Made by a program: the position numbers and the translations under genes. A stretch of DNA of 64,000 nucleotides, taken from positions 77,741 to 141,740 of the IMG/VR virus record IMGVR_UViG_3300017565_000001; one strand, given 5' to 3'. This DNA is from a virus. Its lineage: Duplodnaviria; Heunggongvirae; Uroviricota; Caudoviricetes. Positions 10,601 to 61,531 of this stretch are shown here, one piece after another. Position 1 is the first letter of the stretch; each line of letters opens with the position of its first letter. The notes beneath the pieces were generated by a model. The model was not told the origin of the DNA and did no database searches. It worked only from the letters and a program-made list of their open reading frames with translations.

Positions 10601-10633
10601 TTCCAGCTTACATTTTGACAACATGATTTCGCA

Positions 10634-12903: not shown

Positions 12904-13166
12904 AGATCTATCACATTCACTATCAACAGATTGACGCAGTTACTCAATGGTTATTGGACAACAACGTCAAGCAGGAGAGTAATCCCCTACAATACTTGTC
13001 GGGGGTAGCGTCAGGCAATTCGTCTCGTCCCCTGAGAATGGTTCGCATATGGACTAGTGAAAAGAATTCGAAGCCATCAGGCTATTATGTGAACATCGAA
13101 GACCCCAATCTGATGGCAATGTTTGTTCTGGCCTTTAGTGAATACATCAAGGCTTACGATTTGTAA
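12900..13166 (+). CDS. small protein of the FKL(R/A)F-motif family
   Basis: Contains DPNLMAMFVLAFSEY. Paralogue of the 12202 gene. Confidence 0.5.
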   Translation: MKIYHIHYQQIDAVTQWLLDNNVKQESNPLQYLSGVASGNSSRPLRMVRIWTSEKNSKPSGYYVNIEDPNLMAMFVLAFSEYIKAYDL

Positions 13167-15887: not shown

Positions 15888-16125
15888 ACTCTTGTACCTG
15901 GTCGTCACCGGGATTCCTTCTCCCGGTGACATGACACCGGCATTTTTTGACTTGCTGGACTTCATCAACAATGTTGGTACTGATCAATGTTCATTCTCCA
16001 GAATGAACAAATCGCTCTATGAGAAGCACCATGAAGCCATGATCATTTTCAAGGATCAGAACGATTATGTGCGATTCAAACTGCGATTTTCTGATGACTT
16101 TGCTATACGAACGGCCCACTGTTAA
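15880..16125 (+). CDS. small protein of the FKLRF-motif family
   Basis: C-terminal NDYVRFKLRFSDDF. Confidence 0.5.
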   Translation: MPKLLYLVVTGIPSPGDMTPAFFDLLDFINNVGTDQCSFSRMNKSLYEKHHEAMIIFKDQNDYVRFKLRFSDDFAIRTAHC

Positions 16126-18577: not shown

Positions 18578-19912
18578 ATGAACGAACTTTCCACCATCAA
18601 GATCCCGCAAACCGTTTATGTGGGCTTCCAGGGTCGTCGTGCAGTCGATGAGGTTCCTCTGGGGTTCATGACGCCCTATGATGAGACCAAGGCAGGCCAG
18701 AAGCGCCAGCAGACGGTTGATCAGTGGGCGAAAGGTTGGGGGAGTAACAAGACCTTCAACAGCGTGACTCTGGAAAACGTTCCCATGATCGGCTTCAAGA
18801 TCGGCCGGGCAATTCGCCGCAGTCGTTCTTGGGGTGGAAATGCTTCCTACGTGCGCATCGAGGATCCGCGTGGTTTCGAACTGGAAATCAGTATCGAGAA
18901 CATGGTCATGGTGATGGATCAAAACATCGTCGAAGACGGTGAGATCATGCAAGAGTGCGTGTGGGGCCGTGATGGTGGCAAAAACATTCTGTTGCCAACC
19001 AACAGCGAACCCTATCAGGCTTCCCTGAACACCACCAAACGCCTCAATGCCGTTCTGTCTCTGAAGGACGTCAAGCCGGGCAGCAAGGTGAAACTGGTGA
19101 CTGGTGAAACCGGTATCTATTACGGTTCGCTCTATCCAATCTTCATCAAACATGAAGCCGAACATACGGATACTCGTTCTGGTTACCGCCACGAACGAAA
19201 TACTACAGAGGTGTACACCCCGGAAATTCGTGGGACGAAACGGTACATTCTGTATACGTCGAAGGGTAAGAAGGGAACCTTCAACGTTTACGCAAGTATC
19301 AAAGTGGCCGAAGTTTTGGAGGAAGCCAAGGAAAAGCTCAAGCCCCAAGATGTCGAGAAGCTGATTGCCACAAAGATTGCCGAAGGCAATAATAAGTTTG
19401 TCAATCATGTAAGCTCGACCAGTTACTACGATCGATTCGTGGGATTGGCGGCCGATCAGACGCTTGACTACGCGATCGTCCAGAAAGACATTGCAGAAGA
19501 TTACGCAAAGACGTTGAAGCACAATCGATATGGAACGACTTACGCCAGTCGTTCCATCTACATGGAGAGTGCTGATGGTCAAATCTATACGGCCAGCAAT
19601 GGTTACATGGATTTCACAACCAACTTCCTGCAGGCAAAGAATACTCCGCGTAAGTATGCGAATATCATGCTGTGTCCGAATCCTGGCAGTTATTGGTCCC
19701 GACATGATGCTGAGATTGAAGTTCAAGGCGGTTTCATCGGCATCAAGGCTGATCTGACAGAAGAAAAAGTTACCGAGTACAAATTCCATCAGCAACAATG
19801 GCATGTGACTGATGAAGAGTTGAAGCGTCTGTTCGTGCTTGACGTGGTGATCAAACTGAAGAGTGGTGAACAATATGTCTATGACTTCGGACGTCAAGAC
19901 ACCGACGACTGA
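18578..19912 (+). CDS. hypothetical protein, paralogue L2
   Basis: N-terminal ~110 aa are near-identical in pattern to L1. 444 aa. Confidence 0.65.
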   Translation: MNELSTIKIPQTVYVGFQGRRAVDEVPLGFMTPYDETKAGQKRQQTVDQWAKGWGSNKTFNSVTLENVPMIGFKIGRAIRRSRSWGGNASYVRIEDPRGFELEISIENMVMVMDQNIVEDGEIMQECVWGRDGGKNILLPTNSEPYQASLNTTKRLNAVLSLKDVKPGSKVKLVTGETGIYYGSLYPIFIKHEAEHTDTRSGYRHERNTTEVYTPEIRGTKRYILYTSKGKKGTFNVYASIKVAEVLEEAKEKLKPQDVEKLIATKIAEGNNKFVNHVSSTSYYDRFVGLAADQTLDYAIVQKDIAEDYAKTLKHNRYGTTYASRSIYMESADGQIYTASNGYMDFTTNFLQAKNTPRKYANIMLCPNPGSYWSRHDAEIEVQGGFIGIKADLTEEKVTEYKFHQQQWHVTDEELKRLFVLDVVIKLKSGEQYVYDFGRQDTDD

Positions 19913-20609: not shown

Positions 20610-21266
20610 ATGGCACTATCATTCTCAGGCCAATTCTTTATGGCCATGGTCCTTGACCGTAATGCACCTAACGAATTTCACGTATCTGTATGGGAACTCG
20701 CCCAGCCACAATTGGCGCAGAAGGCGACCTATCTCAAAGTGAAGGGGGACGATTCTCGGTACCATAAGGCTATCGCCTTTGAACATGAGGCTGACTTCCA
20801 AGCCTTTAATTCATGGTGGAACGAGTACAAGCTGCTAGTCGGCGATGCCATCAAATATCGAGCACTTCCGGAACCTGGAGATGGTGAAGTCATTTCAGGT
20901 GTCATGGTGAAGCATAATCCACATGCGGAGTGGGGGCGAGATCGTTTCCCTACACCTGATGAGTTTCTGGTGGAGTGGTCTTGGATCGTTGAAACTTGCT
21001 CAAGTAAGGTGTGGTGGACACCCTGCCATTGGATCTTCCAAAGCCAGGAAGAAGCAGTCATGTTCAAACTGCATGACGAAGGCAATAAGCGTAAGGACGT
21101 CACCAATGACAATTACGACCCCTACAGGTTTAGGCACGATTATCAACTTGACTCGTTCTCCTCTGAATGTTATGATATGGACGATGAAGGAGAGCAGGAT
21201 AGTCCTATGAGTTTGGAAGATCTCATATCTAGACAATTAAAGAAGAGACCAACTGATTGGCTGTAA
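20610..21266 (+). CDS. FKLRF-motif family protein (large member)
   Basis: FEHEADFQAFNSWW and SQEEAVMFKLHDEG, plus an acidic tail. Homologous to the 27144 and 23638 genes. Confidence 0.55.
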   Translation: MALSFSGQFFMAMVLDRNAPNEFHVSVWELAQPQLAQKATYLKVKGDDSRYHKAIAFEHEADFQAFNSWWNEYKLLVGDAIKYRALPEPGDGEVISGVMVKHNPHAEWGRDRFPTPDEFLVEWSWIVETCSSKVWWTPCHWIFQSQEEAVMFKLHDEGNKRKDVTNDNYDPYRFRHDYQLDSFSSECYDMDDEGEQDSPMSLEDLISRQLKKRPTDWL

Positions 21267-22352: not shown

Positions 22353-23567
22353 TTACATGGTTTGATTTTGCATATATTGCAACAAAGCCTCACGTGACAC
22401 GTTGCAATCGTTGTAGAACCAGTATTCCCGCAGGCGCTTCAACGCCGCACCCAAGTCAGGACCAGGTTTCACACCCAACGCCTTTAAGTCATCACCACTG
22501 ACCGGAAACGTCGCTAATTGAAACTTACCGTCCAGGCCTCGCTTCAGCAAATTAACGGCGTAGTCAACATCAAAGTAAACTGCCGCGGCAAAAACCAACT
22601 CCAGCTTCCGCCCCATGACGAAATACTGATACAGGATTTCGGTCGCAGTGACAGCGTAGTCATATGAGACGATGTGCTTGACTACGTCGCGTTCAGCGGA
22701 ACGCCATTTCAATGCCTTGGCAGTTTGCTCAACATGTGCTTCATCGCGCATGAAAGGTGCGAGCAAAACAGCCGCCTGATTACCAAGCATGTGCCGAGCC
22801 ATACTGTCGTGCAACTTTTTGAACCATTCCATGGACGCGGAATCACCGTTAGGCAGAGCAGTATGCTCACTCAAACCCATCTCCATCATGAGGGGATAGA
22901 TCCAATAGCCGCTGAAATGTTCGAGGATCTTGGATGTTTCAGTCCAGATCCGTTCGACACTGATGCCACGCAATCCATGAACACAGTTGCGGATTTCTTG
23001 CTCGGGCAATATGGACTTCAGCTTTTCAGGATGCGGTTGCACTGGATGCATACGGCCCAAGAAACGAAAATAGCGCAAGATGCGCAGATAGTCTTCCGTC
23101 ATACGACCTTCTGCATCACCAACAAAGCGGACGATTCTGTTTTCCAGATCAGCTTGGCCGCCGAAAGGATCCAACAGATTGCCGTCGAAATCAAGCGACA
23201 TTGCATTGATGGTGAGGTCACGACGTGACAAGTCTTCAACCCAGTCACGAGTGTAGGTCATCTTAGCGTAACGGCCGTCGTGCTCGTCCTCAGTACGCAG
23301 ACTGGTGATCTCGTAGGATTCATCCTCCAGAACTACAGTCAGTGTGCCATGCTGCAAGCCCGTTTCCACATACTTGATGCCATGCTTCTGATACAATGCC
23401 AATTGCTCATCAGGGAAGGCGTCAGTGCAGAGGTCCACGTCATGGGGCGGCTCGTTGTTCAGATAATCTCGCACACACCCGCCAACCAAACGCAGGTCAA
23501 AGCCCTCCTGTACGAACAAGTCGCGCAGCGCACGCAAGGGAAGAGGTATCATTTGATTGAGGTGCAT
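22353..23567 (-). CDS. cca: tRNA nucleotidyltransferase (CCA-adding enzyme), class II
   Basis: GGCVRD head motif and RDLTINAM. 404 aa. Confidence 0.85.
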   Translation of the reverse strand: MHLNQMIPLPLRALRDLFVQEGFDLRLVGGCVRDYLNNEPPHDVDLCTDAFPDEQLALYQKHGIKYVETGLQHGTLTVVLEDESYEITSLRTEDEHDGRYAKMTYTRDWVEDLSRRDLTINAMSLDFDGNLLDPFGGQADLENRIVRFVGDAEGRMTEDYLRILRYFRFLGRMHPVQPHPEKLKSILPEQEIRNCVHGLRGISVERIWTETSKILEHFSGYWIYPLMMEMGLSEHTALPNGDSASMEWFKKLHDSMARHMLGNQAAVLLAPFMRDEAHVEQTAKALKWRSAERDVVKHIVSYDYAVTATEILYQYFVMGRKLELVFAAAVYFDVDYAVNLLKRGLDGKFQLATFPVSGDDLKALGVKPGPDLGAALKRLREYWFYNDCNVSREALLQYMQNQTM

Positions 23568-23637: not shown

Positions 23638-24321
23638 TTGACGATATGGCACATACCGTGCATTATGACTGGCATGAACATCCTATCCAAACTTTTCTAT
23701 TTCCTTACCGGCCAGTTCAACATCCGTTTCAAGACTCGCTATGATGAAGACAAGTATGATCCTTGTGAGGGTGAGACGCTTATTGCCGATGACTACATCA
23801 GTTCTGAGATTGAAGATCAAGATGGAGAATTTGATTTCCTGACTCTCAATGATCGCTTGCATGACGGGCGCCCACTCTTGACGGTAATCAATCATCTTAT
23901 GACGGATGAACTCAAATTCCACATTGCTGTATGGTGGAAGCAAGCGGTTGTTGATCGATCCGCCTATACGTTCTTCATTCATCGAGTTGACGGTGATCGT
24001 TATTTGATGATGATGACTGACAACCAGCAAGCCAAAGACGATGCAAGCGCTTGGTTTGCGGATTATTTTGCCAAGTTTCAGGACGACAAATATTTGGAAC
24101 AATTCGTTCCGGCCCTTCCGGATGGGGAATTCCATGGCCACGTATTGTTCCGTAATACGTATGAAGATCCCAATCCACCAACGATCTTCCAAACGTGGAC
24201 TTATATTTTGACAAACTTCCACGGCAAAGTTTATCGTACTCGCTTGGATCGGCATCGAGACATCTTCTACTTTGAGGACGAAGCTGAACTCCTAATGTTC
24301 AAAATGCAGTTTGTCAAGTAA
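23638..24321 (+). CDS. FKLRF-motif family protein (large member)
   Basis: C-terminal FEDEAELLMFKMQFVK. Confidence 0.55.
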   Translation: MTIWHIPCIMTGMNILSKLFYFLTGQFNIRFKTRYDEDKYDPCEGETLIADDYISSEIEDQDGEFDFLTLNDRLHDGRPLLTVINHLMTDELKFHIAVWWKQAVVDRSAYTFFIHRVDGDRYLMMMTDNQQAKDDASAWFADYFAKFQDDKYLEQFVPALPDGEFHGHVLFRNTYEDPNPPTIFQTWTYILTNFHGKVYRTRLDRHRDIFYFEDEAELLMFKMQFVK

Positions 24322-24602: not shown

Positions 24603-25796
24603 ATGTCAGTCAATCATAGTATTCAAATTCCCGATCAGATGTTTGTGGCTTTCGTTCGTAGCAATCAGGATGGCTACGTCCACAAAGGTTATACCATTCC
24701 CTATGGCACTGACTCAGCTTCCAAGAAGCGCCAACTCAACTTGCGGCATTCAACCCATGCCGATCGTGAAGGTGGGCTTGAGCCAGTAGTCTTGGAAAAT
24801 AAACCCATGTACGGGTTTAAGATTAGCCGCAAGCTTCGAGCAAACGGCTGGCGTTCTGATATTCAAACCGTTAGCATCGAAGATCCCAGAGGTTTCGAAT
24901 TTGAAGTTTCGGTTGCCAATCTGATCATGCTTACCGACAGCAATTTGATTCATAATGGCGAAATTATTCAGCAATGTGTATGGGCTCGCGATGGTGCAAT
25001 CAACATTTTGCTTCCAATCAATAGCCAACCATATCTGGATGCCGTTGTGAACACTGAGCGGGTATCCAAGCGAGTCAATACTCGATCGGTAAAACCAGGC
25101 AATAAGGTTCTCCTGCATGATGGCATTAAGGGTGTTTACATGGGTTCCATGTATACCATCATGCGTGATTACAACCGCAACTTGAGCATTTCACAAAAGA
25201 AGAAACACATCGTTCGTGTTGAAGGCGATAGTGGTACTTCGGTGGAATATCATGGTTACCCAACAATGAAAATTTCCGAGGTGTTGGATTCCACTCCCCA
25301 AACCAAAGAAGCATTGAGCCAACAGTTGGTGAATGACATCAAGGATAAGACGGTTACATTCCGGAAAGTCACGTCTGGCTATGGGCATGTGTCAACGCTC
25401 ACGTATGGTGACACCTTGATCTTTGCCAAGAAGGAACGGCGGTCGATTTCATACGATGAAGCTATGAAAGCCAAGAGCAACAGTTCGATTTTGGGCGTTT
25501 ATGATGACGAATGTTACCTGATCGAAGGCAACAGTATGGACCCCAATTATCGGTCTTATTACTACCGAAGCCTGGGAGTTGATGAAGTCCAGGCTGTGAA
25601 GATCAACGTATTTGCTTTGGATAAAGGCACGATTGAAATTGTTCAAGAGTACAATATCAACTCATCAAGTTATTACCGTAGTAGGGAACAGAAAACCTAT
25701 CAGATCAACAAGGATGAGATTGACTATTTTGTCTTAGAGTTGACGCTTAAGGATTCTGAGACCAACGTCAACTTCCACGTTAACGATTTGAAATAA
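24603..25796 (+). CDS. hypothetical protein, paralogue L3
   Basis: PMYGFKISRKLRANG...SIEDPRGFEFEVSVANLIMLT is collinear with L1 and L2. Confidence 0.65.
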   Translation: MSVNHSIQIPDQMFVAFVRSNQDGYVHKGYTIPYGTDSASKKRQLNLRHSTHADREGGLEPVVLENKPMYGFKISRKLRANGWRSDIQTVSIEDPRGFEFEVSVANLIMLTDSNLIHNGEIIQQCVWARDGAINILLPINSQPYLDAVVNTERVSKRVNTRSVKPGNKVLLHDGIKGVYMGSMYTIMRDYNRNLSISQKKKHIVRVEGDSGTSVEYHGYPTMKISEVLDSTPQTKEALSQQLVNDIKDKTVTFRKVTSGYGHVSTLTYGDTLIFAKKERRSISYDEAMKAKSNSSILGVYDDECYLIEGNSMDPNYRSYYYRSLGVDEVQAVKINVFALDKGTIEIVQEYNINSSSYYRSREQKTYQINKDEIDYFVLELTLKDSETNVNFHVNDLK

Positions 25797-27143: not shown

Positions 27144-27770
27144 ATGAATTTGGTTATGGTTCCGCCACCTTTCGCTGTGGGAAATGGTCGAATTATGGGT
27201 AACGGCATATCAGCCGAAATATACAACCACAACCCAGATGTGATAGTGCATACGTCCGGCCAAGGATCGGTTATGGGATACGGTCGAGTCAACTCTATTA
27301 CGAGTACAGACACCTTTCATTATGACCCAATGGCCGATTACAAAAGTTGGTATGGGTTGGAAGCATCTAGCGTCTTCACTATGATGAACGACGACGAAAT
27401 AATGGCAAGGGTATGGGATCGTTCTGAATTCAACCAATGGTTAGCCCAAAATGTAAAGGACTTGGTGCTAGTTCAGCGTCATTGGCCATCTTGGGTGCTA
27501 GTATTCAAAAGCGAAGCAGATTACCATTCCTTTATTACCTGGTGGACTTATACCGAAAAACAAGAGAAGATGTTCTTACCAATACCGGCTGAATATCAAG
27601 GTAAGAATTACGTGTTCATTCGAGAACTCAAGGAATGGTGTGATGCCAATCTTGTTGACAAATTTGAGCTCGCAAGTCAATCCAGTCGGGTGAAATGCAC
27701 CATCAGAGATCCCCAGGAAGCAGTTATGTTCAGGCTTCGTTGGTCGGAACCAAATAATAACCAACTCTGA
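27144..27770 (+). CDS. FKLRF-motif family protein (large member)
   Basis: FKSEADYHSFITWW and DPQEAVMFRLRW. Confidence 0.55.
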   Translation: MNLVMVPPPFAVGNGRIMGNGISAEIYNHNPDVIVHTSGQGSVMGYGRVNSITSTDTFHYDPMADYKSWYGLEASSVFTMMNDDEIMARVWDRSEFNQWLAQNVKDLVLVQRHWPSWVLVFKSEADYHSFITWWTYTEKQEKMFLPIPAEYQGKNYVFIRELKEWCDANLVDKFELASQSSRVKCTIRDPQEAVMFRLRWSEPNNNQL

Positions 27771-36549: not shown

Positions 36550-37899
36550 TTGGCGCCAGATCAGCTATACTGGCACCTGTTCCTATTCGTCACCGGAGAA
36601 AATATTTTGATTGACACCTTTTTCGCATTGCTGGCACTAATTATCGTGTCGGCAGTGTTGCAGAATCGATACAAGATTCCGTCACCCATCACCCTCATCA
36701 CGGTCGTTCTTGCTGGTAAAGCCGCAGGCATGAACGTGTTCTCGGTCACCGGTTCAGGATTCGATGCCTTGGTGGTGTTGGCGTTCCCACTACTCATTGC
36801 GGCTGATGCCATGAAACTGAAATGGGCAGACATGCGCGAACACTGGGCCAGTTTGGTCTGGGTTGCAGGTGTGTCCGTCATCTTCAGTGTGTTGGCGGGT
36901 GTGGTACTGAACAAATTCTTGTTCCTGGATATTCCTCTGACTCTCAGCGCTGTTGCGGTTCTGTTCTGCATCATCAGTGCAACCGACCCCGTGACAGTAA
37001 GTGCCGTGATGGGCAACTTCAAAGTACCGCACAAGCTGAAGATTCTGGTCGAGGGTGAAAGCCTGTTGAACGACGCAACGGCCATTATTGCATTCAGCAT
37101 TGCGCTCATTGCACTGAACTCTCACGATGCTATCACCATGGAATTCGTTGGCACCAAGATCATTAGCGTGATTTGCGGCGCCGCGGTAGTGGGTGCCACG
37201 TTGGGTTTGCTGTCGTTCCGATTGCTGCGCATGAGTGAAGATCCGTTGATCGAAGCATCCATTCTGATCATGACCGCATACGCATCCTATATCGTGGCTG
37301 AAATGTTCCACTTCAGTGGAATCCTGGCTGTGATTGTGAGCATTGTGCTCTGCAGTGAAAAGATTCGCCGACTGCTAGACGGCCAGGTTACGGTGAGTGG
37401 TCTGACTGATGACTTTGGATTGTTGCGTCATACTCCCATGACAGCCGAAAACCACAAGTTCATCACCAAGATCTTTGAATTTGCGGCGATGATGGCTGCT
37501 GGTGCTCTGTTTGTGTCGATCGCTGCTCTGGTCAATTTCAGTGATATGCTCCTGTACTGGAAGGAAATCATTGCTATCTTCATCGTCAGCACCCTGATTC
37601 GATCAGTCACCATGTTGAAGTTTGCGATCGTCAGCAACAAGTCCAACATGATGAAAGCAAAGATCAGCAAGCATTGGTGGTCGGTTCTCACGTTTGCTGG
37701 CAGCAAGGGTGCGATAAGTATCTTGATGGTACATATGATCCCTGACTCCTTTGAGTACAAGAAGCTCTTTGAAGTCATCGTGATCGGCAACATTATTTTG
37801 AGCACGTTTGTTTACGCGGCTGTACTGGCTATCGTAATCCCGCTCAACAAAGCAAAATTTGACAAGGAAGTCGACGACGAAGTGGCTGCTGGCCACTGA
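36550..37899 (+). CDS. CPA1-family Na+(K+)/H+ antiporter
   Basis: About 11-12 TM helices. SATDPVTVSAVMG and EGESLLNDATAIIAF are signature motifs. Confidence 0.8.
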   Translation: MAPDQLYWHLFLFVTGENILIDTFFALLALIIVSAVLQNRYKIPSPITLITVVLAGKAAGMNVFSVTGSGFDALVVLAFPLLIAADAMKLKWADMREHWASLVWVAGVSVIFSVLAGVVLNKFLFLDIPLTLSAVAVLFCIISATDPVTVSAVMGNFKVPHKLKILVEGESLLNDATAIIAFSIALIALNSHDAITMEFVGTKIISVICGAAVVGATLGLLSFRLLRMSEDPLIEASILIMTAYASYIVAEMFHFSGILAVIVSIVLCSEKIRRLLDGQVTVSGLTDDFGLLRHTPMTAENHKFITKIFEFAAMMAAGALFVSIAALVNFSDMLLYWKEIIAIFIVSTLIRSVTMLKFAIVSNKSNMMKAKISKHWWSVLTFAGSKGAISILMVHMIPDSFEYKKLFEVIVIGNIILSTFVYAAVLAIVIPLNKAKFDKEVDDEVAAGH

Positions 37900-37924
37900 A
37901 TAAACTCTAACCTGTAGGTGAAGT

Positions 37925-39211
37925 ATGAAGAAGCGTAATTATTTGATGGTGGGCTACGGCTCTGTGGCTCAAGGTTTGACTCCCCTGCTGTTCAAGCATT
38001 TTGATATAACGGCAGACCAGATTCAGATCCTGACAGCTGATCTCAGAGGTAAAGAGATTGCTGACAAATATGGGATCCCCTTTACGGTGGAACCCCTAAC
38101 ACCAGACAACTATGAACGCTTATTGAGCACTCATTTGCAGGCTGGTGACATCCTGATCAACTTGTCAGTTGACGTGTCCAGCTACGCATTGGTTGAATGG
38201 TGTTTGGAACATGGCGTCATGTACACTGACACCTGTGTGGAACCGTGGGCTGGTGGTTATGGACTCCAAAGCGGAGATCAACCCCTAACCAACGCTCAAC
38301 TACGTGACAATATTTTGACCCTGCGTGAAACGTTTGGTGCTGACGCACCCACGGCTCTTATTGCGCATGGTGCGAATCCAGGTTTAGTGTCCCATTTCAT
38401 GAAGCGTGGTCTCCACGAGATGGCGAAGAACCAACGACTTGACGTTGACGATCTGTCTTTTGGGGAAGTTGCCGAACTTCTAGGGATCAAGACGATTCAC
38501 ATAGCGGAAGTGGACACACAAGAGGATGGCATTCCCCTTAAGTCGGGTGAATTTGCCAATACTTGGTCTGTCGATGGTTTATTGTCAGAAGGCTATCAGT
38601 TTGCTGAAATGGGTTGCGGTACCCATGAAGAATTGGGCATCAGTGCGACGACTGGTACTCATGGAGCAACTACCAAAGTTCGTTCATGGGTACCGAGCCA
38701 GGGTGAGCAAGAAGCTTACATGATCACGCACCACGAAGCTCTGTCTATCAGTGCATTTCTGGATACTGGTAAGTATCGCCCGTCAACCTATTACGCATAT
38801 CGACCGTCACCAAAGACGTGCCAGTCAATCGATAATTGGGTAGAAGATCAATTCAAAGATCCTGAAATAAAAACGCTCATGGGCCCTACCATCAAGTCTG
38901 GCTATGACGAGCTGGGAGTTTTGTTCGTCACTTCAGTTGGCTCTTATTGGTATGGTTCCACACTGAATCATCAAGATGCAATTTCCTTGATCGATCACAA
39001 CAGTGCAACCACCCTTCAAGTCACTGCGACTATTATCGGTGGCCTTAAGTGGATGCTTGAGAACTCTCGCAAGGGTGTGGTCGAAGCGGAAGACACGGAT
39101 TCAGACTTCATTCTGAATCAAGCATTGCCATATCTGGGTGATGTTCGTGGCGTCTCCACTGACTGGACCGTTAGCGATTTGAGCATCAAAGGTTTTCTGA
39201 AAAGTTGTTGA
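37925..39211 (+). CDS. homospermidine-synthase-like / saccharopine-dehydrogenase-fold enzyme
   Basis: Rossmann fold MVGYGSVAQGLTPLLFKHF resembles the HSS N-terminus. 428 aa. Confidence 0.6.
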   Translation: MKKRNYLMVGYGSVAQGLTPLLFKHFDITADQIQILTADLRGKEIADKYGIPFTVEPLTPDNYERLLSTHLQAGDILINLSVDVSSYALVEWCLEHGVMYTDTCVEPWAGGYGLQSGDQPLTNAQLRDNILTLRETFGADAPTALIAHGANPGLVSHFMKRGLHEMAKNQRLDVDDLSFGEVAELLGIKTIHIAEVDTQEDGIPLKSGEFANTWSVDGLLSEGYQFAEMGCGTHEELGISATTGTHGATTKVRSWVPSQGEQEAYMITHHEALSISAFLDTGKYRPSTYYAYRPSPKTCQSIDNWVEDQFKDPEIKTLMGPTIKSGYDELGVLFVTSVGSYWYGSTLNHQDAISLIDHNSATTLQVTATIIGGLKWMLENSRKGVVEAEDTDSDFILNQALPYLGDVRGVSTDWTVSDLSIKGFLKSC

Positions 39212-39263
39212 TTTGGTAGTGCCAGTTGTTTAGGCTGGCACACCTTAACTTCTACCTATAAAA

Positions 39264-39638
39264 ATGAAACGATCCGCAGTTATTCCGCTCCTGATGCTTG
39301 GCACTCTGTCACTCACCGCTTGTGGTGATGGTGGTGATAAGGTTGACACCAAACAAAACCGCTATTCGTCAGTTGAAGATTGCCGCCGTGATTGGGGTAA
39401 CGATTCGCGTGACTGTACTCCCAGAAGCGGGGGCGGCTATGTGGGCCCGCATTACTTTTGGAACCATTCAACCGGCACGCCCATGGCGGTTGGATCGGAT
39501 GGTTCGACTCGCGCACTCTCAAATTCGTATTTGACCCGCCCTGGTGCGGTGTCTGCTGCGACTGGTACCACTTCACAGAGCTCGATTGCTCGTGGTGGTT
39601 TTGGGTCTTCGGCCCGTGCTTCCTCTGTTGGTGGCTAA
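39264..39638 (+). CDS. DUF1190 (YgiB/YjfM-like) lipoprotein
   Basis: Lipobox LSLTAC. C-terminal IARGGFGSSARASSVGG matches the YgiB C-terminus TRGGFGES...SRSMGG. Confidence 0.6.
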   Translation: MKRSAVIPLLMLGTLSLTACGDGGDKVDTKQNRYSSVEDCRRDWGNDSRDCTPRSGGGYVGPHYFWNHSTGTPMAVGSDGSTRALSNSYLTRPGAVSAATGTTSQSSIARGGFGSSARASSVGG

Positions 39639-40759
39639 TGGAACGTCTTCATGTTATGGCTCGGCCAGATAAGGCCGAGAAGCTGGAAAGTATCGGCCTG
39701 TCGTTCCATGGTTGGGATGACTATTGGAACGAAGACGTGTGTTATCGTTTCACGGCAAAGCAAGTTGATGAACTGGAAGAGGCCACAAACGAATTGCATT
39801 CCATGTGTCTTCGAGCAGTCAAGCATGTGATCGATACCCGCCGATTTGCTGAGCTGGGTATTCCCGAAGCATACTGGGATGCAATCGCCAAGTCTTTCGA
39901 ACAAAGCGACTTCACGCTTTATGGTCGGTTTGACTTCGCGTATGATGGCGTGAATCCTCCCAAGATGCTCGAATACAATGCTGACACGCCAACCAGTCTG
40001 CTGGAGAGCGCCGTCGCACAATGGTATTGGATGGAAGACAAGTTTCCAGATGCTGACCAATTCAATTCTCTGCATGACAAGTTGGTTGCTCGCTGGAAAG
40101 CCCTCGATCCCAAGTATCACACTATTCACTTCGCTTCAATCTCTGAAAACGAGGAAGACTGGGTATGCGTCCATTACTTGATGGAAACTGCAATCCAGGC
40201 TGGTCGCATTGCTCGTCACATCTATGTTGAAGACATTGGCTACAATGAAAAGAGTGAAACGTTCGTTGATGTCAATGGTGATGAGATCCTGGCTTTGTTC
40301 AAACTGTACCCCTGGGAGTGGTTGATGGTTGAGGAATTTGGCCAGCACGTTGCCAAATCCAAGACATTGTTTATCGAGCCCATGTGGAAGTCAGTCCTGA
40401 GCAACAAGGGAATTCTGGCTATCTTGTGGGAATTGTTCCCCGATCATCCCAACCTGTTGCCTGCATATCTGGAACCCAACAAGCTGTCATCGTACGCAAA
40501 GAAGCCATTCTTCTCACGTGAAGGTGCGAATGTCGAACTGATTCAAGATGGCAAACAAGTTGCTGCCGACGAAGGTCCCTACGGTGCAGAAGGCCATGTC
40601 TATCAGCAACTCACTGAATTACCGGTATTCGAAGGATGCTATCCAGTCGTTGGCTCATGGGTTGTTGGTGACGAGTCGGCTGGTATTTGCATTCGCGAAG
40701 ATGTGCTGAAGATCACCACCAACATGAGCAATTTCATCCCCCACTATTTCACTGAATAA
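39639..40759 (+). CDS. glutathionylspermidine-synthase-like ATP-grasp amidoligase (YgiC/YjfC family)
   Basis: FDFAYDGVNPPKMLEYNADTPTSLLE is the GspS pre-ATP-grasp signature. About 373 aa. Confidence 0.75.
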
Positions 40760-53915: not shown

Positions 53916-55520
53916 ATGCATTCAATTTGCTTTGCCTTTCTGGACTTGAGCCATAAGTTTGCTGACAAACAAGTGGCTGACAAGTGTTATCAGATCACTC
54001 GCCTACATGCTAATCGGTTGTTCCCCAAGTCACCAATGTTTTACTCTGGTGACTACGAGGCAATTTTGGCGTGGGCAGACTCCACACATTCCTCATATCT
54101 GATGATACTGGGACCAGGCACCGTTCTGTTAAATGAGCAGGCGGTGCTTAGTTGTATCAGGGAAGTGGGCGAACATGAAACCATGTTATTGGGTGACATC
54201 TCCATCCCATCACCTGCTTATGCGATGCTGGAGTACACTGCTGCCTTTTTGGACTTAGACCAATGGCGACGATCCAAGAAGCCTCATTGGGGTAAACCTG
54301 GTGGCACCCATCCAGTAAAGATTCCATATCAGACTAGTGCCGCACCAGATATACTGACGAGTACAGGTATGACTGAGGACAAGACTACGATTGGTCACGG
54401 TCACAATATCATTCATAAGTCTTTGGAGCACCACAAGCAAGTCAGAACCCTACCAGTGGGATTCAGAAACAATGCGAAGATGATGCCAGTTATCGAGTAT
54501 CAGGATAAACTAGCTGAATGCTTGTTTGAAGATCTTATCTATTACCAGGATGAGCTTGATTCAGAGACATATCTGGTTCTGGCTATGATGTACGATGAGA
54601 CCTTGGAGGGGACTATCTGCAGGCTGACTAATGAGAACGGTTTGGTTCCTTGGAGAATCAAGACGGTACAAGAAGCTAGACAGGATACGAACCAGCCAGT
54701 AGTGGGTGACGACGGACAGTTGAATATTAGGGAAGTAGTTCAACCCATCATTACTAGTCATCAACCTGCCATATTGGATAGTATGGGCCAAGTAATGGCG
54801 AAGTCAACGAATAATACCATATTGATATCAAGCACTACGTTATTGGTTCCAGGACTTCAAGGATCCATCACGGAGTCTTCGCCAATCGTTTCCAATAATA
54901 CCAAGACGCCTACCAAACAACCAACCAAGCTACCAAGGACACCTGGATGTCGTAAACTCCAGGTAGAAATCTCGAAACTCTACAGTGTACCAAACGGTTT
55001 CCGTCCCCTGGAGATATTGATGGAGTATGGCTTCACATCTGATACTGAAGTCATCTATTTTGCTAGAACAACTACGGAGCTGGCATTTAGGCAAGTTCTG
55101 CTAGAAGACTGGGATGGTGAGAACTTCCCCAAATTCATAGGGGATTATGCAGACATGTTTCGCTTCGACATCGCACGTTATGATGTCCCTGCGGTTTGGC
55201 AGAAAGCCCTAGAAACGTTTGGCGGGCCTAAAGAGTTTAAGGACTTGTGGCAAGCATATAAGAAGCTCAGACATCACTATACCCTGGTGGGTAGGGCGAA
55301 ACGTTTTGAATTAGCGGTCGAAGATGGGCCGGGCGTCTATGTTTACTGGGATAACTTGTTCACCAACTACACAACACATTTTCACTCGTCATACGCCGAG
55401 ATAGCTTCTGACTTCTCTTGGTTCTACCAGGACTTGCTAAAGCAAAATCCAGATATGCTAATGGAAGGAACTGACTATTGGGGCCGCCCGTCGTGTAATC
55501 ATTTGAAGCAGCGCGTATAA
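53916..55520 (+). CDS. hypothetical protein (534 aa)
   Basis: Long ORF. No motif recognised. Confidence 0.5.
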   Translation: MHSICFAFLDLSHKFADKQVADKCYQITRLHANRLFPKSPMFYSGDYEAILAWADSTHSSYLMILGPGTVLLNEQAVLSCIREVGEHETMLLGDISIPSPAYAMLEYTAAFLDLDQWRRSKKPHWGKPGGTHPVKIPYQTSAAPDILTSTGMTEDKTTIGHGHNIIHKSLEHHKQVRTLPVGFRNNAKMMPVIEYQDKLAECLFEDLIYYQDELDSETYLVLAMMYDETLEGTICRLTNENGLVPWRIKTVQEARQDTNQPVVGDDGQLNIREVVQPIITSHQPAILDSMGQVMAKSTNNTILISSTTLLVPGLQGSITESSPIVSNNTKTPTKQPTKLPRTPGCRKLQVEISKLYSVPNGFRPLEILMEYGFTSDTEVIYFARTTTELAFRQVLLEDWDGENFPKFIGDYADMFRFDIARYDVPAVWQKALETFGGPKEFKDLWQAYKKLRHHYTLVGRAKRFELAVEDGPGVYVYWDNLFTNYTTHFHSSYAEIASDFSWFYQDLLKQNPDMLMEGTDYWGRPSCNHLKQRV

Positions 55521-55567
55521 ATATCCTATATGTTAACTGGAACAGACCAGAGATAAAGGAAACCCCA

Positions 55568-57446: not shown

Positions 57447-57541
57447 GATTTTACCCTAGGACCGTTAGGTTACGGTAAAAGCCGCGGCATCATGCGGTGC
57501 AGATTACCCGGATTCGCTACCCTGGGTCTGTCAAGGATGCA

Positions 57542-57573
57542 GTAAGGCCCCCGCCAAGGGGCCTTACTTTTGG
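57542..57573 (+). terminator. intrinsic terminator
   Basis: GTAAGGCCCC-CGCCAA-GGGGCCTTAC followed by TTTTGG. Confidence 0.7.
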
Positions 57574-57623: not shown

Positions 57624-58034
57624 ATGTTTTGGAATCGAATGATTCGATGGTGCAGGGAAATATTGTTCAAGATCAATCCAGTTAGTGGCATCCTGCTGAC
57701 TGCCAATATCGATGAGTTGAAGCCAATAGGAAAGATTCACGCCATGAAATCAAATGTTGGCGTGATATGGCCATCTCAATATCCCAAGACCTTGCGGTCA
57801 CTGTCCAGCAACATCGTATTGGTCTACCCACCAGAAGTTGAAGAATATTTGGAATCCGTGGGCGCCGTCAAAATGGTAAACACTGATATTGGATTTTATA
57901 TCAATGGTGCTTACACGGACGACATCACCCTACTTAAGGCTCGATTGACGTTTCTGAACCAAGAACCACTCGTTCAGGGTTTGGTGTTTGCCCAAACCTA
58001 TCAAGTAGTTGATTTCAAGTTGAGGTTCATGTGA
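57624..58034 (+). CDS. array member 1 (FKLRF-family)
   Basis: Ends VVDFKLRFM. Its stop overlaps the GTG start of member 2. Confidence 0.55.
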   Translation: MFWNRMIRWCREILFKINPVSGILLTANIDELKPIGKIHAMKSNVGVIWPSQYPKTLRSLSSNIVLVYPPEVEEYLESVGAVKMVNTDIGFYINGAYTDDITLLKARLTFLNQEPLVQGLVFAQTYQVVDFKLRFM

Positions 58035-58372
58035 AATTCTTTATCGAACTATTCAAGAAGGTAAGGCATCGCATCGCTCCTCAATCATATGGCCACGTCG
58101 TCGTGATCGATCGTCGAACGCACGAACATCTTACCATGGGATGGCATCAAGCGTGCAATCCTAATGCTAAACTGCATTGGATGATTATGGCTGCCGATGT
58201 TCAAGAATTCATAGGAGCCAGAGGTGGACGGGTTCTCCCCAATAATTTGGAGGGCTTGAGTACCTTCTACGACTTCCCACCCAGTGAACACGAACAAGAC
58301 CAATATATGCTCCATCGAATTTCATTCCCTGATGAAGAATCTGTGGTGATGTTCAAATTGCGTTTCATGTAA
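58031..58372 (+). CDS. array member 2
   Basis: Ends SVVMFKLRFM. Confidence 0.55.
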   Translation: MKFFIELFKKVRHRIAPQSYGHVVVIDRRTHEHLTMGWHQACNPNAKLHWMIMAADVQEFIGARGGRVLPNNLEGLSTFYDFPPSEHEQDQYMLHRISFPDEESVVMFKLRFM

Positions 58373-58384
58373 GGAATCACATCA

Positions 58385-58738
58385 ATGTTTATGATGAAGC
58401 TACTCAATGAGTTGTTTGAACCGGAGCCACCAAAACCCATACATCGTATGATCAAATTCAATCTGGAGTCTCGAGATGATTTGGCCGACGCTTTTGAGGA
58501 AATTGAACCTGGCCCTCGTTATGTAATGGATTCGAACCAACGTGTTCATGATTTCAACATACCGAGAGTGGTGAAATTCAATGAGGAGGTTGAACGCTTC
58601 TTTATTGACAGGCAGGTCAAAAAGAAGGCTATCTATAGTATGTTCACTCGTTACACGGCAAAAGGCATGGACTTCAGACAAACTCTGTTTTTCGCTTGCG
58701 ACGAGGACATGATCGAATTCAAGCTGAGGTTCTTGTGA
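58385..58738 (+). CDS. array member 3
   Basis: Ends MIEFKLRFL. Confidence 0.55.
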   Translation: MFMMKLLNELFEPEPPKPIHRMIKFNLESRDDLADAFEEIEPGPRYVMDSNQRVHDFNIPRVVKFNEEVERFFIDRQVKKKAIYSMFTRYTAKGMDFRQTLFFACDEDMIEFKLRFL

Positions 58739-58968
58739 TTCAATGGACATTCAGTGATGCCTCGATAAACGAAGGCAAGCGATTCTTCGTTGATCCCGAA
58801 ACCTCAAACTTGGCGGAATTGTTAAAGCCGGAGATTGAAGAGTTCATGGATCAACATGGAATAGTCAAATATCCAAACAAAGAATATCAGGTCATAACAT
58901 TCGGTGCCATAACGCTTTATTTCCCATCAGAAGAAGTTTTGGTGGAGTTCAAACTTCGCTTCACATAG
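58735..58968 (+). CDS. array member 4
   Basis: GTG start in a GTGA overlap. Ends LVEFKLRFT. Confidence 0.5.
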   Translation: MIQWTFSDASINEGKRFFVDPETSNLAELLKPEIEEFMDQHGIVKYPNKEYQVITFGAITLYFPSEEVLVEFKLRFT

Positions 58969-59024
58969 CCTTTACAAATGGCAGAACTGCCAATAGAATT
59001 GGTGCATCACTTCCAGGGGAACTC

Positions 59025-59354
59025 ATGATTTTGTTTTTGGCCCGTCTTCTCAACTATTTGCGTTTCATGGTGAATCACCAGAAATATGGGCACGTGGTTG
59101 ACGTCGAAATCAACAAGTACGATTTTGTGAAAGTTGTGGCCTTCAGAATTGATTTGGGTTATGACTTCAAAGTTCAACCCACCCCAGAAATGAATGATAG
59201 GCTGCGATCGGTTGGCGCAAAAATAGGCCATGTCGAATGTGCCTATTTTTCTCTGGAGAATGAGGCTCGAGGTATGGCTCTCAAGGATCCTTGGGTGAAG
59301 TTTTATTTCCCCACGGCAGAAGCAGCCATTGTATTCAAGCTGGAATGCATGTGA
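59025..59354 (+). CDS. array member 5
   Basis: Ends AIVFKLECM. Confidence 0.55.
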   Translation: MILFLARLLNYLRFMVNHQKYGHVVDVEINKYDFVKVVAFRIDLGYDFKVQPTPEMNDRLRSVGAKIGHVECAYFSLENEARGMALKDPWVKFYFPTAEAAIVFKLECM

Positions 59355-59707
59355 TGTGGGAGAAGCTCAAAACCTTGTTGCGGCCAAGATTAGTGAAGAT
59401 CGCGCCCAAGACCTTCGGCCATCCTGTGACTTTTGATATTGGCCACCATATCGGTTTGGGTGATATCAATGGTCGATACTCCAAACAAAAATCCGATACC
59501 CAATACGTGTTTGTTCCATCCCAAGAGGTGGAAGAATTTCTGGATCAATTCGCTCATTCAGTGAATGTTTCTGATGTCGCAATCACGGATTTCATTGATA
59601 TTAATGCAATGTTGATTGGTGAATCAGTCAATTACGGCAAGGTGACAATAACTTTCTCCGATCCAGCGGTTGCTTGTATTTTCAGACTGCAATTCCTATG
59701 TCCATAA
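59354..59707 (+). CDS. array member 6
   Basis: TGATG overlap. Ends ACIFRLQFLCP. Confidence 0.5.
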   Translation: MWEKLKTLLRPRLVKIAPKTFGHPVTFDIGHHIGLGDINGRYSKQKSDTQYVFVPSQEVEEFLDQFAHSVNVSDVAITDFIDINAMLIGESVNYGKVTITFSDPAVACIFRLQFLCP

Positions 59708-60018
59708 GTTTGGAAAAATACCCCATAGAATCAATCAAAATCAAAGATACCGGAGATTGGTATGAACTCGGTATCTTGACGAAACCTATTGTGCTTGATT
59801 GGGGATCGAGGGAGCATATTGTTCATTTCAGATTTGGGGTAGCGTATGCTCTGCATCTTCCTGATGATATGATGGAGATAGTGTGCCTGAATCCCGAGCA
59901 AGTAGTATGGGTAGGGAATGAAGTTTTCCATCACCGTGAGAACTTCAATTGGCAAATTCTGTTCAAGTTTATGGTCTTTGATGCCAATCTCGCCACCCAA
60001 CTAAAACTCATGATATGA
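59698..60018 (+). CDS. array member 7
   Basis: Ends ATQLKLMI. Confidence 0.45.
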   Translation: MSISLEKYPIESIKIKDTGDWYELGILTKPIVLDWGSREHIVHFRFGVAYALHLPDDMMEIVCLNPEQVVWVGNEVFHHRENFNWQILFKFMVFDANLATQLKLMI

Positions 60019-60398
60019 ACATATTCCGCAAACTGGTTCGATCATTCAGGGTTTGGGCATTCGGTCAACGACCTGTATGGTTTGGCCACAAGGTATCACT
60101 ATGTTGGTCAGACTATTCCTGCTATTGCTTGGAGCCTATGACAGTTTCATGGCCGATCAGCGTTGGTTTGCCTGGACCCATAGCTAGAAATACCATTAGG
60201 AACTTGAAAAATATTGGTGTTGGTGGTCACAGAATGCGGACCGAAGTGAGCGAGTTCCTGATAGAGCATAATGGAGTAGTTGAGACTGTAAAGAAATTCC
60301 ACGCCCAGGAATATGGCGAGGGCCGTTCATATCACATTTTCCACATATGTTTTCTGGACTTGGAAGACTTGGTGGCATTCAAATTGGCGTTCATGTGA
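60015..60398 (+). CDS. array member 8
   Basis: ATGA overlap. Ends LVAFKLAFM. Confidence 0.55.
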   Translation: MNIFRKLVRSFRVWAFGQRPVWFGHKVSLCWSDYSCYCLEPMTVSWPISVGLPGPIARNTIRNLKNIGVGGHRMRTEVSEFLIEHNGVVETVKKFHAQEYGEGRSYHIFHICFLDLEDLVAFKLAFM

Positions 60399-60652
60399 TG
60401 AAAGCAAGCTGGATAATTCAGGATAGACGATTTATCAATAGACGTTCCGTGGGGTTCACATTTGAAATACCTGACGGATCATATGAGGAAATCATTCTCG
60501 CCACCCCCGACCCATGGAGCTACACTCTAACAAAAGCATTCAAGGAATGGGCTATTGACAAGGGACCGTATCGAGTGAGTCTAGATGGTAGCCAAACTCG
60601 TATCGTATTTGCTCGTCGAGATTCAGCCATGATGGCAAAGTTGAGGTTTTGA
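60398..60652 (+). CDS. array member 9
   Basis: TGATG overlap. Ends AMMAKLRF. Confidence 0.5.
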   Translation: MKASWIIQDRRFINRRSVGFTFEIPDGSYEEIILATPDPWSYTLTKAFKEWAIDKGPYRVSLDGSQTRIVFARRDSAMMAKLRF

Positions 60653-60876
60653 TGCAGTCTTTTGATGTGGATTACGATCACGTAAAGCATTGGTTCGTAC
60701 TATCAGATAATGGTGGCCAAGTGATACGACACCTTAAACCTGACGTTCGAACACGATTGGATGAATATGGATTGGTGTCCTATTCTACAAGGACTAAGGA
60801 CAACATCCGCACCGCTCGTTTCGTTTTTATGACGATGGAGGGTGCGGTTGCCGCTAGATTGATGGTTAGCGGATAA
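60652..60876 (+). CDS. array member 10
   Basis: TGATG overlap. Ends AVAARLMVSG. Confidence 0.45.
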   Translation: MQSFDVDYDHVKHWFVLSDNGGQVIRHLKPDVRTRLDEYGLVSYSTRTKDNIRTARFVFMTMEGAVAARLMVSG

Positions 60877-61531
60877 CTTCCATAACCACTTCAAAATCCT
60901 CACAATCACGGTACATCTGTGGTGTGAGGTTGTTGACTTTCTGAATCATGGCTTCCAAATGTGGAAAGTCATTCAAATAGTCTGGGTTGTTCTTCAACGA
61001 ATCCAGAACCATTTCCACACAGCTCACGTGCGAAGTGTCCTGAATGTCAAACAAGTTGTCGTATTCTTTGCCCAACTGCATGGCAAGACCTTCCATGATT
61101 GACTCCCAGTCTTCTGGCTTCAGATTTACTGGGCGCATCACACAAACTGAATCGCAGTCGAAAACATCCATGAACGTGGAATAGTGGACGCCCTCACGAG
61201 TGGCTTCCATCAGCTTGAACTTTTCAAAGTTCTCTGGATTGTCCTCCAGGTCCAAATTCATCAGAATATGCGTGTACTTGGGCCATTTGCCAGTCTTCAG
61301 CAGAGTCAAGATGCTGATGGCGTATGTGCTCAAGTGGCTTTTGCGATTGGTCAGGATCATGTAGTAGCCACCAGCCAGCAGTGTCTTCAATTGTTCATGA
61401 TCTTCAGGGGTCAAGTCATACCCCTTACCACTCTTACTAAATTTGGCCTTTAGCCACGTCCAATTGATTGAACCAATCACATTGGACAATTGCTTCCAAA
61501 GCCAATACCACCAAGTTTTATATTTTGACAT
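60866..61531 (-). CDS. hypothetical protein
   Basis: 221 aa ORF. Trp-rich N-terminus. Confidence 0.5.
   Translation of the reverse strand: MSKYKTWWYWLWKQLSNVIGSINWTWLKAKFSKSGKGYDLTPEDHEQLKTLLAGGYYMILTNRKSHLSTYAISILTLLKTGKWPKYTHILMNLDLEDNPENFEKFKLMEATREGVHYSTFMDVFDCDSVCVMRPVNLKPEDWESIMEGLAMQLGKEYDNLFDIQDTSHVSCVEMVLDSLKNNPDYLNDFPHLEAMIQKVNNLTPQMYRDCEDFEVVMEVIR

Follow-up and report, generated by a model that had tools for sequence, protein, structure and literature searches.

The 64,000-nucleotide stretch analyzed here (the window; positions 77,741 to 141,740 of the IMG/VR virus record IMGVR_UViG_3300017565_000001) is part of the 424,547-bp metagenomic contig k141_834733 (ENA ERZ27256359) and carries, at positions 57624 to 60876, an array of ten small genes, g1 to g10, most of whose products end in FKLRF(M) or a variant of it. 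Profile comparisons identify this array as one conserved branch of a large unannotated protein family, which has dozens of copies per genome in the jumbo-phage clade of Sinorhizobium phage Phosso and Agrobacterium phage Atu_ph07, generally in tandem arrays. Very probably, the shared domain is a small soluble alpha/beta fold of which FKLRF(M) is the last structural element and not a tag, and the codons of the motif also serve as translation signals for the next gene. The initial annotation, made from the letters of the window, had described translationally coupled paralogs bearing a conserved C-terminal tag; the genes, the coupling, and most of the paralogy were confirmed, whereas the tag was not.

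The ten genes and the shared domain

The ten plus-strand open reading frames (ORFs) lie head to tail at the coordinates at which they had been noted. Their start codons were refined from orthologs and from independent gene calls on the source contig, where an independent gene caller returned the same ten products. Paralogy was tested by leave-one-orthogroup-out E values of hidden Markov models (HMMs), supplemented by hhalign comparisons with the wider family. The genes are as follows (aa, amino acids; E, leave-one-out E value):

57624-58034, +: g1, 136 aa, ends in VVDFKLRFM; family member, E = 1e-8
58031-58372, +: g2, 113 aa, GTG start within the ATGTGA of g1, ends in VVMFKLRFM; family member, E = 8e-14
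58385-58738, +: g3, 117 aa, ends in MIEFKLRFL; family member, E = 2e-5
58735-58968, +: g4, 77 aa, GTG start overlapping the g3 stop, ends in LVEFKLRFT; minimal domain, E = 5e-11
59025-59354, +: g5, 109 aa, ends in AIVFKLECM; family member, E = 4e-10
59354-59707, +: g6, 117 aa, ATG in a TGATG overlap, ends in CIFRLQFLCP; family member, E = 9e-12
59698-60018, +: g7, 106 aa, ends in ATQLKLMI; real operon gene, family membership not demonstrable, E = 41
60015-60398, +: g8, 127 aa, ATGA overlap, ends in LVAFKLAFM; family member, E = 2e-9
60398-60652, +: g9, 84 aa, ends in AMMAKLRF; family member, E = 8e-4
60652-60876, +: g10, 74 aa, ends in AVAARLMVSG; probable degenerate member, E = 2e-3

All ten are real genes under purifying selection. 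The proportion of nonsynonymous differences (pN, 0.04 to 0.51 across the ten genes) is far lower than that of synonymous differences (pS, 0.39 to 0.93); synonymous sites are mostly saturated, and the ratio of nonsynonymous to synonymous substitution rates (dN/dS) is 0.07 to 0.26 where dS is computable. Orthologs of g1 share 58 to 64% identity, with a pN of 0.22 to 0.30 against a pS of 0.71 to 0.75, those of g5 share 74 to 78%, those of g10 share 50 to 60%, and those of g7 share 36 to 52%, again with pN below pS.

The same array, in the same order and flanking context, is found in three further lineages from public assemblies, with position-by-position orthologs of 36 to 92% identity. The number of genes is 12 at locus L001, 10 at L002, L003, and L004, and 9 at L005, L006, and L007. 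Turnover is limited to two slots, those of g3 and g7: L001 has three genes in the g3 slot (10351-11551; 132, 141, and 127 aa, with a coiled-coil-like basic N terminus), and L006 has an empty g3 slot and a canonical 81-aa member (11348-11593) in the g7 slot.

The motif F[KR]L[RAEQ][FC] forms the C terminus of seven array ORFs and occurs just three times elsewhere in the six-frame translation of the 64-kb window. Profile HMMs aligned the C termini with significant similarity, and the leave-one-orthogroup-out E values for g1 to g6 and g8 range from 2e-5 to 8e-14. Against the superfamily profile, hhalign scored g9 at 96.8% (E = 2.4e-10), g10 at 46.5%, and g7 at 3.4%. On these HMM and hhalign scores, the array contains at least eight and probably nine paralogs, with eight robust, g10 likely but weak, and g7 unproven, so that the proposal of paralogs with a common C terminus stands for eight members, weakly for g10, and without support for g7. 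Neither g7 (QLKLMI) nor g10 (ARLMVSG) has the motif proper.

The array alignments share the C-terminal pattern i.F...E..V.FKLRF(M) and, in most members, an internal "PEVEEFL..G" helix. An N-terminal element, in which a basic amphipathic helix is followed by P..(Y/F)GH.V, is present in just five of the ten proteins (g2, g5, g6, and g8, with a variant form in g1). The N-terminal regions, noted earlier as divergent, and the middle of the proteins are thus not unrelated. Conservation between paralogs is almost confined to hydrophobic core positions plus one Lys, while the sequence proper to each paralog is kept among its orthologs; a near-invariant Lys lies in the last helix. Several members are basic, with an isoelectric point (pI) of 9 to 10, and others are acidic (g4, pI 4.6; g7, pI 5.4). 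No 19-residue stretch in the array proteins has a mean Kyte-Doolittle hydropathy above 1.5, and the idea of membrane proteins was rejected for lack of a hydrophobic segment.

The AlphaFold2 model of g2, made from an 18-sequence alignment, has a mean predicted local distance difference test (pLDDT) score of 83.8 and a predicted template modeling (pTM) score of 0.74. Its helices (H) and strands (E) are H2-20, E22-27, E35-43, E46-53, H55-63, E67-69, H86-93, E94-99, and H102-112. Strand E94-99 ends at the invariant Phe99, helix H102-112 has the sequence EESVVMFKLRF, and mean pLDDT reaches 96 and 93 in the two final blocks of 10 residues. The model of g4 (77 aa) has an overall pLDDT of 66.8, with a core near 90, and repeats the helix-strands-helix core of g2 (H32-41, E44-47, E59-62, and H66-76). 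In the two models the C terminus is predicted to be helical, with a pLDDT of 88 to 96.

The predicted core thus consists of the internal PEVEEFL..G helix, two or three strands ending in the invariant Phe, and a C-terminal amphipathic helix with E/D..V.FKLRF(M). Since this last helix is confident and continuous with the fold, the motif is very probably part of the fold and not a floppy signal. Hydrophobic periodicity, the invariant Phe and Leu columns, and the confidence values, rather than measured contacts, suggest that the helix is buried. The terminal beta-strand that had been considered for the motif does not agree with the models, which place a high-confidence alpha-helix after the invariant strand Phe. 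A portable C-terminal tag on otherwise unrelated proteins is likewise at odds with a homology that spans the whole domain (52 columns in hhalign) and with the confident helix formed by the motif.

The wider family in jumbo phages

Searches of the ten array proteins against Pfam-A, PHROGs v4, and PADLOC-DB with hmmscan, and against PDB sequences with a profile, gave nothing above noise, in keeping with the early view that no described family was involved. The metagenome search suggested at that stage for ORFs ending in FKLRF led to the wider FKL[T/R][W/F] family. A degenerate DNA scan of IMG/VR for FKLRFM followed by a stop gave 41 loci, about the chance expectation, three of which are packed with small ORFs ending in ...F.F.d..dA.lFKL[T/A/R][W/F]GG. 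The typical ending of the wider family is ...F.F.d..dA.lFKL[T/R][W/F]GG, usually FKLTWGG.

A profile made from unrelated IMG/VR contigs alone aligns with the window family over 52 columns, from the internal helix to the C terminus (hhalign, 93.8%; E = 1.7e-7). It matches g8 (E = 1e-5), g9, g3, g2, g6, and g4 directly. With the superfamily HMM, g2 is matched at an E value of 1.7e-12 among the window ORFs and 3.3e-11 among all related loci, and g9, the nearest of the ten to the FKLTWGG type, is matched at 3e-8. The iterated family HMM, run over all related loci, retrieves g2 (3e-11), g9 (6e-7), g4 (3e-6), and g8 (1e-5); g3 and g6 score more weakly.

Matches of a second IMG/VR scan, for FKLTWGG, concentrate on contigs of 416 to 465 kb, and the topoisomerase II large subunits of array-bearing IMG/VR contigs are 62 to 73% identical to that of the window. 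At least 423 member ORFs are present in about 1.17 Mb of related DNA, and a single 417-kb contig has at least 64 of them within 50 kb, a second contig 47 within 24 kb; these copy numbers are lower bounds and come from loci chosen because they bear the motif. The domain is the C-terminal part of a protein of about 60 to 150 aa and is laid out as a helix (..dW/FL...G), strands ending in ..F.F, and a helix with d/E..A/V..FKLxW/F. The array alignments and the secondary structure modeled for g2 and g4 agree with this layout, and profile similarity places the array in the family, with weak support for g10 and no support for g7. In 86% of the 423 members, the domain ends no more than 3 residues from the stop. 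The termini themselves vary (RFM, RFL, RFT, ECM, LCP, LMI, AFM, LRF, and VSG in the array; TWGG, TWL, and TFG elsewhere).

The window holds further members or candidates outside the array, as follows:

27144-27770, +: member of 208 aa with two tandem domains (...DPQEAVMFRLRWSEP...); superfamily HMM E = 9e-11, two matched stretches
15880-16125, +: candidate of 81 aa (...IIFKDQNDYVRFKLRFSDDFAI); E = 2.6e-4 with the superfamily HMM and 1.2e-3 with the array HMM, among 734 ORFs
12900-13166, +: candidate of 88 aa (...NIEDPNLMAMFVLAFSEY...); superfamily HMM E = 1e-4
12178-12429, +: candidate open frame (...LPDPDLQMMFKLAFSH...); superfamily HMM E = 2.4e-4
20610-21266 and 23638-24321: candidates from the superfamily HMM

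The window encodes a T4-type topoisomerase II large subunit, ClpX, a CCA-adding enzyme, an RNA ligase, and a glutathionylspermidine synthase. By its topoisomerase subunit, which shares 63% identity with the protein of Phosso (469 kb) and 57% with that of Atu_ph07 (490 kb), the window phage (about 424 kb) is a jumbo myovirus of that clade.

Phosso, a cultured phage, has two arrays of family genes with 4-nucleotide (nt) overlaps, all annotated as "hypothetical protein". Four of the genes lie between the two topoisomerase II subunit genes, and five lie beside the CCA-adding enzyme gene. The first set (21878-22923 of L124, which is Phosso 358101-399975) separates the large-subunit and subunit-A genes, which are adjacent in Atu_ph07 (2699-5885 of L125); no family members were found in the first 24.5 kb of Atu_ph07. 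Comparison of the two phages suggests that gene pairs conserved in other respects can be entered by arrays or be the place of their expansion. The CCA-adding enzyme of Phosso (XYS97655; 522 aa; 30454-32022 of L124, minus strand), which adjoins the five-gene array, has a C-terminal extension of about 110 aa that ends in ...FFKSKDSAMIAKLREG and is faintly like the family domain, with a nonsignificant E value of 0.02 to 0.04.

Megablast of the array region against 50,697 phage records gave no match, nor did tblastn, even at E values of 1 to 10, with g2, g4, the neighboring 534-aa and 221-aa proteins, or one IMG/VR member; tblastn with a Phosso member returned only itself. BLAST cannot detect the FKL[T/R][W/F] family. 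A related-locus search with g2 found nothing, and a word-indexed search with the IMG/VR alignment, whose prefilter was too strict, gave 5 matches. Ten IMG/VR members had no match in Pfam and other curated families at threshold or at E values up to 1e-3. An exhaustive HMM search of 1.84 billion representative proteins yielded 17 matches, all but one from close relatives. The exception, the eukaryote-like repeat protein P0021 (1601 aa, with 12 copies of "...SPEEVEEYIDENGVRVKRIV..."), matches profile positions 64 to 108 (E = 1e-7) through a "PEEVEEY.DENG" stretch in the region of the PEVEEFL..G helix; it was rejected as convergent or of low complexity and not homologous. A scan of bacterial and archaeal genomes for the FKLTWGG DNA pattern gave single matches among the 120 loci listed, two of which carry real members, both sharing genes with viral contigs. 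Neither the motif nor such a paralogous family was found in the Atu_ph07 paper, the AP-J-162 paper, or a jumbo-phage review.

Coupling signals, transcription, and neighboring genes

Stop and start codons overlap at seven of the nine junctions of the array, in agreement with the first description of most of them:

g1 to g2 and g3 to g4: GTGA overlap
g5 to g6, g8 to g9, and g9 to g10: TGATG overlap
g7 to g8: ATGA overlap
g6 to g7: 10-nt overlap (ATG of g7 at 59698; stop of g6 ending at 59707)
g2 to g3: 12-nt spacer with an AAGGA Shine-Dalgarno sequence
g4 to g5: 56-nt spacer with a promoter-like site

A physical link between the tail motif and the coupling, proposed from the outset, is borne out and extends to the choice of codons. 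Leu-Arg of the motif is written YTG-AGG, and Phe/Cys-Met-stop is written ATGTGA(TG), in which the GTG or ATG start of the next gene is contained. Where the next start overlaps, AGG encodes the Arg of KLRF in every case (12 of 12 junctions) and places GAGG 5 nt before that start (at g1 to g2, g3 to g4, g9 to g10, and the orthologous junctions); where the next gene does not overlap, the codon is CGT or CGC at six of eight junctions. In the long ORFs of the window, AGG makes up 7.6% of Arg codons. Across the wider family, a Shine-Dalgarno-like sequence is present in the last five codons of 55 of 335 tails (16%), compared with 28 of 335 control windows (8%); with an enrichment of only about twofold, the AGG rule holds for KLR[F/W] tails rather than for the family at large. 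The KLRF peptide survives synonymous variation and nonoverlapping contexts, and selection therefore acts on the protein as well. The codons of the motif thus very probably have a second role as translation signals.

The 177-nt spacer upstream of g1 is identical in the window, L001, and L002, though the neighboring genes are saturated at synonymous sites. The elements in and near the array are as follows:

57447-57541, +: structured non-coding RNA element of three hairpins, immediately 3' of the upstream 127-aa gene and its stop; a neighbor of the array, not a demonstrated part of it
57542-57573, +: intrinsic-terminator-like hairpin, GTAAGGCCCC-loop-GGGGCCTTAC followed by a short T run; 11 bp, 4 with compensatory changes in L006
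57584-57592, +: P1, extended -10 promoter-like element TGCTACAAT, 32 nt upstream of the g1 start
58971-58999, +: P2, sigma-70-like TTTACA-17 nt-TAGAAT, 26 nt upstream of g5, with 10 of 12 consensus matches

P1 is the sole match to TGnTAnAAT in an intergenic region upstream of a gene in the window, and ATGCTACAAT is kept in all four lineages, including the otherwise diverged spacer of L006. P2 is kept in L001 and L002, is recognizable in L006, and is one of just two such intergenic sites immediately upstream of a gene in the window. These motifs point to two transcription units, g1 to g4 and g5 to g10, each after a conserved sigma-70-like promoter and the first also after a terminator, which would separate the upstream operon from the array. 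With sigma-70-type promoter-like sites before both units, expression is probably by the host polymerase, that is, early, and the arrangement suggests an early and roughly equimolar output.

Between the hexamers of P2 lies a palindrome, TGGCA-N4-TGCCA (58985-58998), with conserved arms and a center that differs in L001 and L002; it may act as an operator or form a small hairpin. Copies of the RNA element with the terminator lie at 57447-57573 in the window, 9419-9545 in L001, 9064-9190 in L002, and approximately 9401-9530 in L006. The RNA element (about 95 nt) and the terminator are 100% identical in the window, L001, and L002, and L006 keeps the helices through compensatory changes, with both partners altered in nine pairs. 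The RNA element is not a tRNA, and Rfam gave no match at E values up to 10. Exact copies were absent from IMG/VR and JGI metagenomes, and a search of 456 kb of related DNA with a covariance model did not turn up another copy. The element could represent either a small RNA or part of a 3' untranslated region.

Upstream of the array lie ORFans of 534, 265, 227, and 127 aa. Downstream, the end of g10 overlaps by 11 nt the end of a convergent 221-aa gene (60866-61531, minus strand), which is followed by an epimerase and a UDP-glucose dehydrogenase. The sole TATAAATA in the window, the T4 late-promoter consensus, is at 55516-55523 (plus strand), 45 nt upstream of the 265-aa gene that opens the operon before the array; about 3 matches per 128 kb are expected by chance, and late expression of that operon from TATAAATA is only hinted at.

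Elsewhere in the window, three ORFan proteins of 358 to 444 aa (17493-18569, 18578-19912, and 24603-25796, plus strand) share a common set of matching ORFs from related IMG/VR contigs (E = 1e-33 to 1e-53); they are therefore apparently paralogs of each other and would form a second multicopy family of the window phage. At 36550-40759 (plus strand), a run of host-like metabolic and transport genes encodes a Na+/H+ exchanger, a saccharopine-dehydrogenase-like protein, and the glutathionylspermidine synthase, which shares 66% identity with the enzyme of Ralstonia phage RSL1; the run is possibly an auxiliary module related to polyamines. Genes of the RNA-repair type are scattered over 174-665 (minus), 22353-23567 (minus), and 32723-33754 (plus), and the set comprises the HAD domain of "Swiss Army Knife" RNA-repair proteins, the CCA-adding enzyme, and the RNA ligase.

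Possible roles and relation to known systems

The functional reading proposed here is tentative and falls somewhat short of probable. From the conserved core hydrophobics and the conserved surface proper to each paralog, the proteins would be diversified binding modules, a repertoire produced early in infection in which each member would engage a distinct host or phage partner in host takeover, counterdefense, or regulation. Combined with the structural, evolutionary, and coupling evidence, the explanation as a whole is considered slightly favored. A more far-reaching form of it, which is rather unlikely, would make the domain an unrecognized phage-specific binding scaffold with perhaps 100 or more paralogs per genome, possibly a tenth or more of the genes, acting as early combinatorial inhibitors or adaptors against host defense and housekeeping proteins, with the ten-gene array as the core coregulated subset.

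Several points weigh against this explanation. The promoters, the terminator, and the early timing are read from motifs, and the region has 11 matches to -35/-10 elements where 9.3 are expected, a number at chance level overall. The AGG statistic overstates the number of observations, as orthologous junctions are not independent; the AlphaFold2 alignments are shallow (18 and 28 sequences); and g7 is not demonstrably a family member, with g10 only weakly so. In addition, the stable order, purifying selection, and tight coupling fit a fixed multisubunit assembly at least as well. In such an assembly, which is the main alternative and is regarded as unlikely, the ten proteins would be subunits of one structural or enzymatic-accessory hetero-oligomer, with the coupling setting near-equimolar amounts and the helix-strand core serving as a common interface. 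It would account for the overlapping stops and starts at seven of nine junctions, for an order and content nearly fixed in four lineages with saturated synonymous sites, for purifying and not diversifying selection on every paralog, and for the similar coupling of the Phosso arrays. However, at least 64 copies on one genome, in many arrays of varying size, are hard to square with a single complex, and the g3 and g7 slots are gained, lost, or replaced between lineages. A small nucleic-acid-binding module, whether its paralogs regulate transcription or RNA specifically or coat DNA or RNA, is less probable still. The basic pI of several members, the near-invariant Lys, the faint resemblance of the Phosso CCA-adding enzyme extension, and the same interpretation given to the roughly 35-copy zinc-ribbon expansion of phage G (PMC7824862) speak for it, whereas that extension does not match significantly, the acidic g4 and g7 do not fit, and Pfam returned no KH or RRM sequence match.

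The remaining alternatives concern the motif itself or the arrangement of the genes. Recognition of FKLRF(M) as a shared signal, whether a ClpX/ClpS degron or adaptor tag or a virion-packaging signal, had been put forward at the start and now seems improbable. The phage does encode ClpX (4856-6109 in the window), Phosso encodes ClpS, and the motif stands at the extreme C terminus in 86% of members. ClpX C-degrons are exposed and unstructured, ssrA ending in ...LAA and MuA in ...RRKKAI. A short terminal sequence common to several proteins is what the array shares with these degrons and with the N-terminal capsid-targeting sequences of T4, but those are exposed or unstructured and portable, whereas the array motif is a predicted structured helix, continuous with the fold, within a domain-wide homology. 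Its termini vary and do not resemble those of ssrA or MuA, and the known packaging signals of T4 internal proteins are N-terminal and cleaved. ClpS recognizes N-terminal residues, so that it has no bearing on a motif at the C terminus. It is very improbable that the array is a bank of immunity proteins or antitoxin-like proteins directed at polymorphic toxins, comparable to the orphan immunity arrays of contact-dependent growth inhibition (CDI) and Rhs loci. Tandem arrays of small divergent paralogs are typical of such loci, and one IMG/VR member has a subthreshold Imm51 match (E = 0.009), but this match covers 28 residues and is far below the family cutoff, PADLOC gave no match, and no toxin domain lies beside the array, whose neighbors are ORFans and sugar-nucleotide enzymes. 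Least probable of all is that the tail is maintained chiefly as DNA or RNA sequence, for example as a coupling or Shine-Dalgarno cassette or by gene conversion, and not for its peptide. In favor of this, the Shine-Dalgarno sequence and the next start do lie within the motif codons, and AGG is strongly overused at just the sites that require it. Synonymous variation nevertheless largely refutes a purely DNA-level conservation, the peptide being kept through AAG/AAA, TTG/CTG/CTT, AGG/CGT/CGC, and TTC/TTT, in g2 and g4, neither of which is overlapped by the next gene, and in hundreds of distant members with different downstream contexts; the weak enrichment in the wider family (16% against 8%) also counts against it.

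The array and its family can be set beside several known systems. The plastic ("hyperplastic") regions of the T4 superfamily hold small, tightly packed early ORFans behind sigma-70-type promoters between core genes. The four Phosso members between topoisomerase II subunit genes that are adjacent in Atu_ph07 resemble this arrangement; T4 early ORFs, however, are mostly mutually unrelated, whereas the array ORFs appear as paralogs of one domain that are stably inherited across lineages. Tandem-amplified families are also known in eukaryotic viruses, such as the African swine fever virus multigene families MGF110, MGF360, and MGF505, the poxvirus ankyrin and Bcl-2-like proteins, and the mimivirus ankyrin and BTB proteins, which usually bind host factors. 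A conserved scaffold core, variable surfaces, and tandem amplification are common to these families and the array, whose proteins are much smaller and come from viruses of a different host domain. As in coupled operons (ribosomal-protein, trp, and many phage operons), stops and starts overlap and the Shine-Dalgarno sequence lies inside the upstream gene. Unlike in ordinary coupled operons, the Shine-Dalgarno sequence and start of the array are written into the most conserved residues of the family signature, and the choice of Arg codon therefore tracks the overlap of the next gene.

A further likeness is to Bacillus phage G, in which a zinc-ribbon family of about 35 copies is a lineage-specific expansion in a jumbo phage (Iyer et al. 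2021, PMC7824862). Both are small single-domain families with dozens of copies, often adjacent, in genomes of more than 400 kb. The array differs in its predicted alpha/beta fold without metal ligands, in its translational coupling, and in a copy number that reaches at least 64 on one contig. The FKL[T/R][W/F] family is not mentioned in the phage G survey (PMC7824862) and is absent from Pfam and PHROGs. On present comparisons, the domain family is an undescribed and unusually large one, and the encoding of its signature residues by coupling signals is a new twist.

For the biology of this clade, the family offers a testable structural and evolutionary account in place of the degron-tag idea. 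Its jumbo phages reportedly carry "unique" ORFs by the hundreds; in Sinorhizobium phage AP-J-162, for instance, 304 of the 643 protein-coding ORFs analyzed were called unique (PMC11242549). If a sizeable share of the ORFans of the clade belong to the FKL[T/R][W/F] family, part of this dark matter would become one problem, for which Phosso on S. meliloti provides a cultured system. The family would also be a clean natural example of the codons of a protein signature co-opted as ribosome-binding and start signals, with a bearing on how synonymous-site conservation is interpreted and on the recoding of phage genomes.

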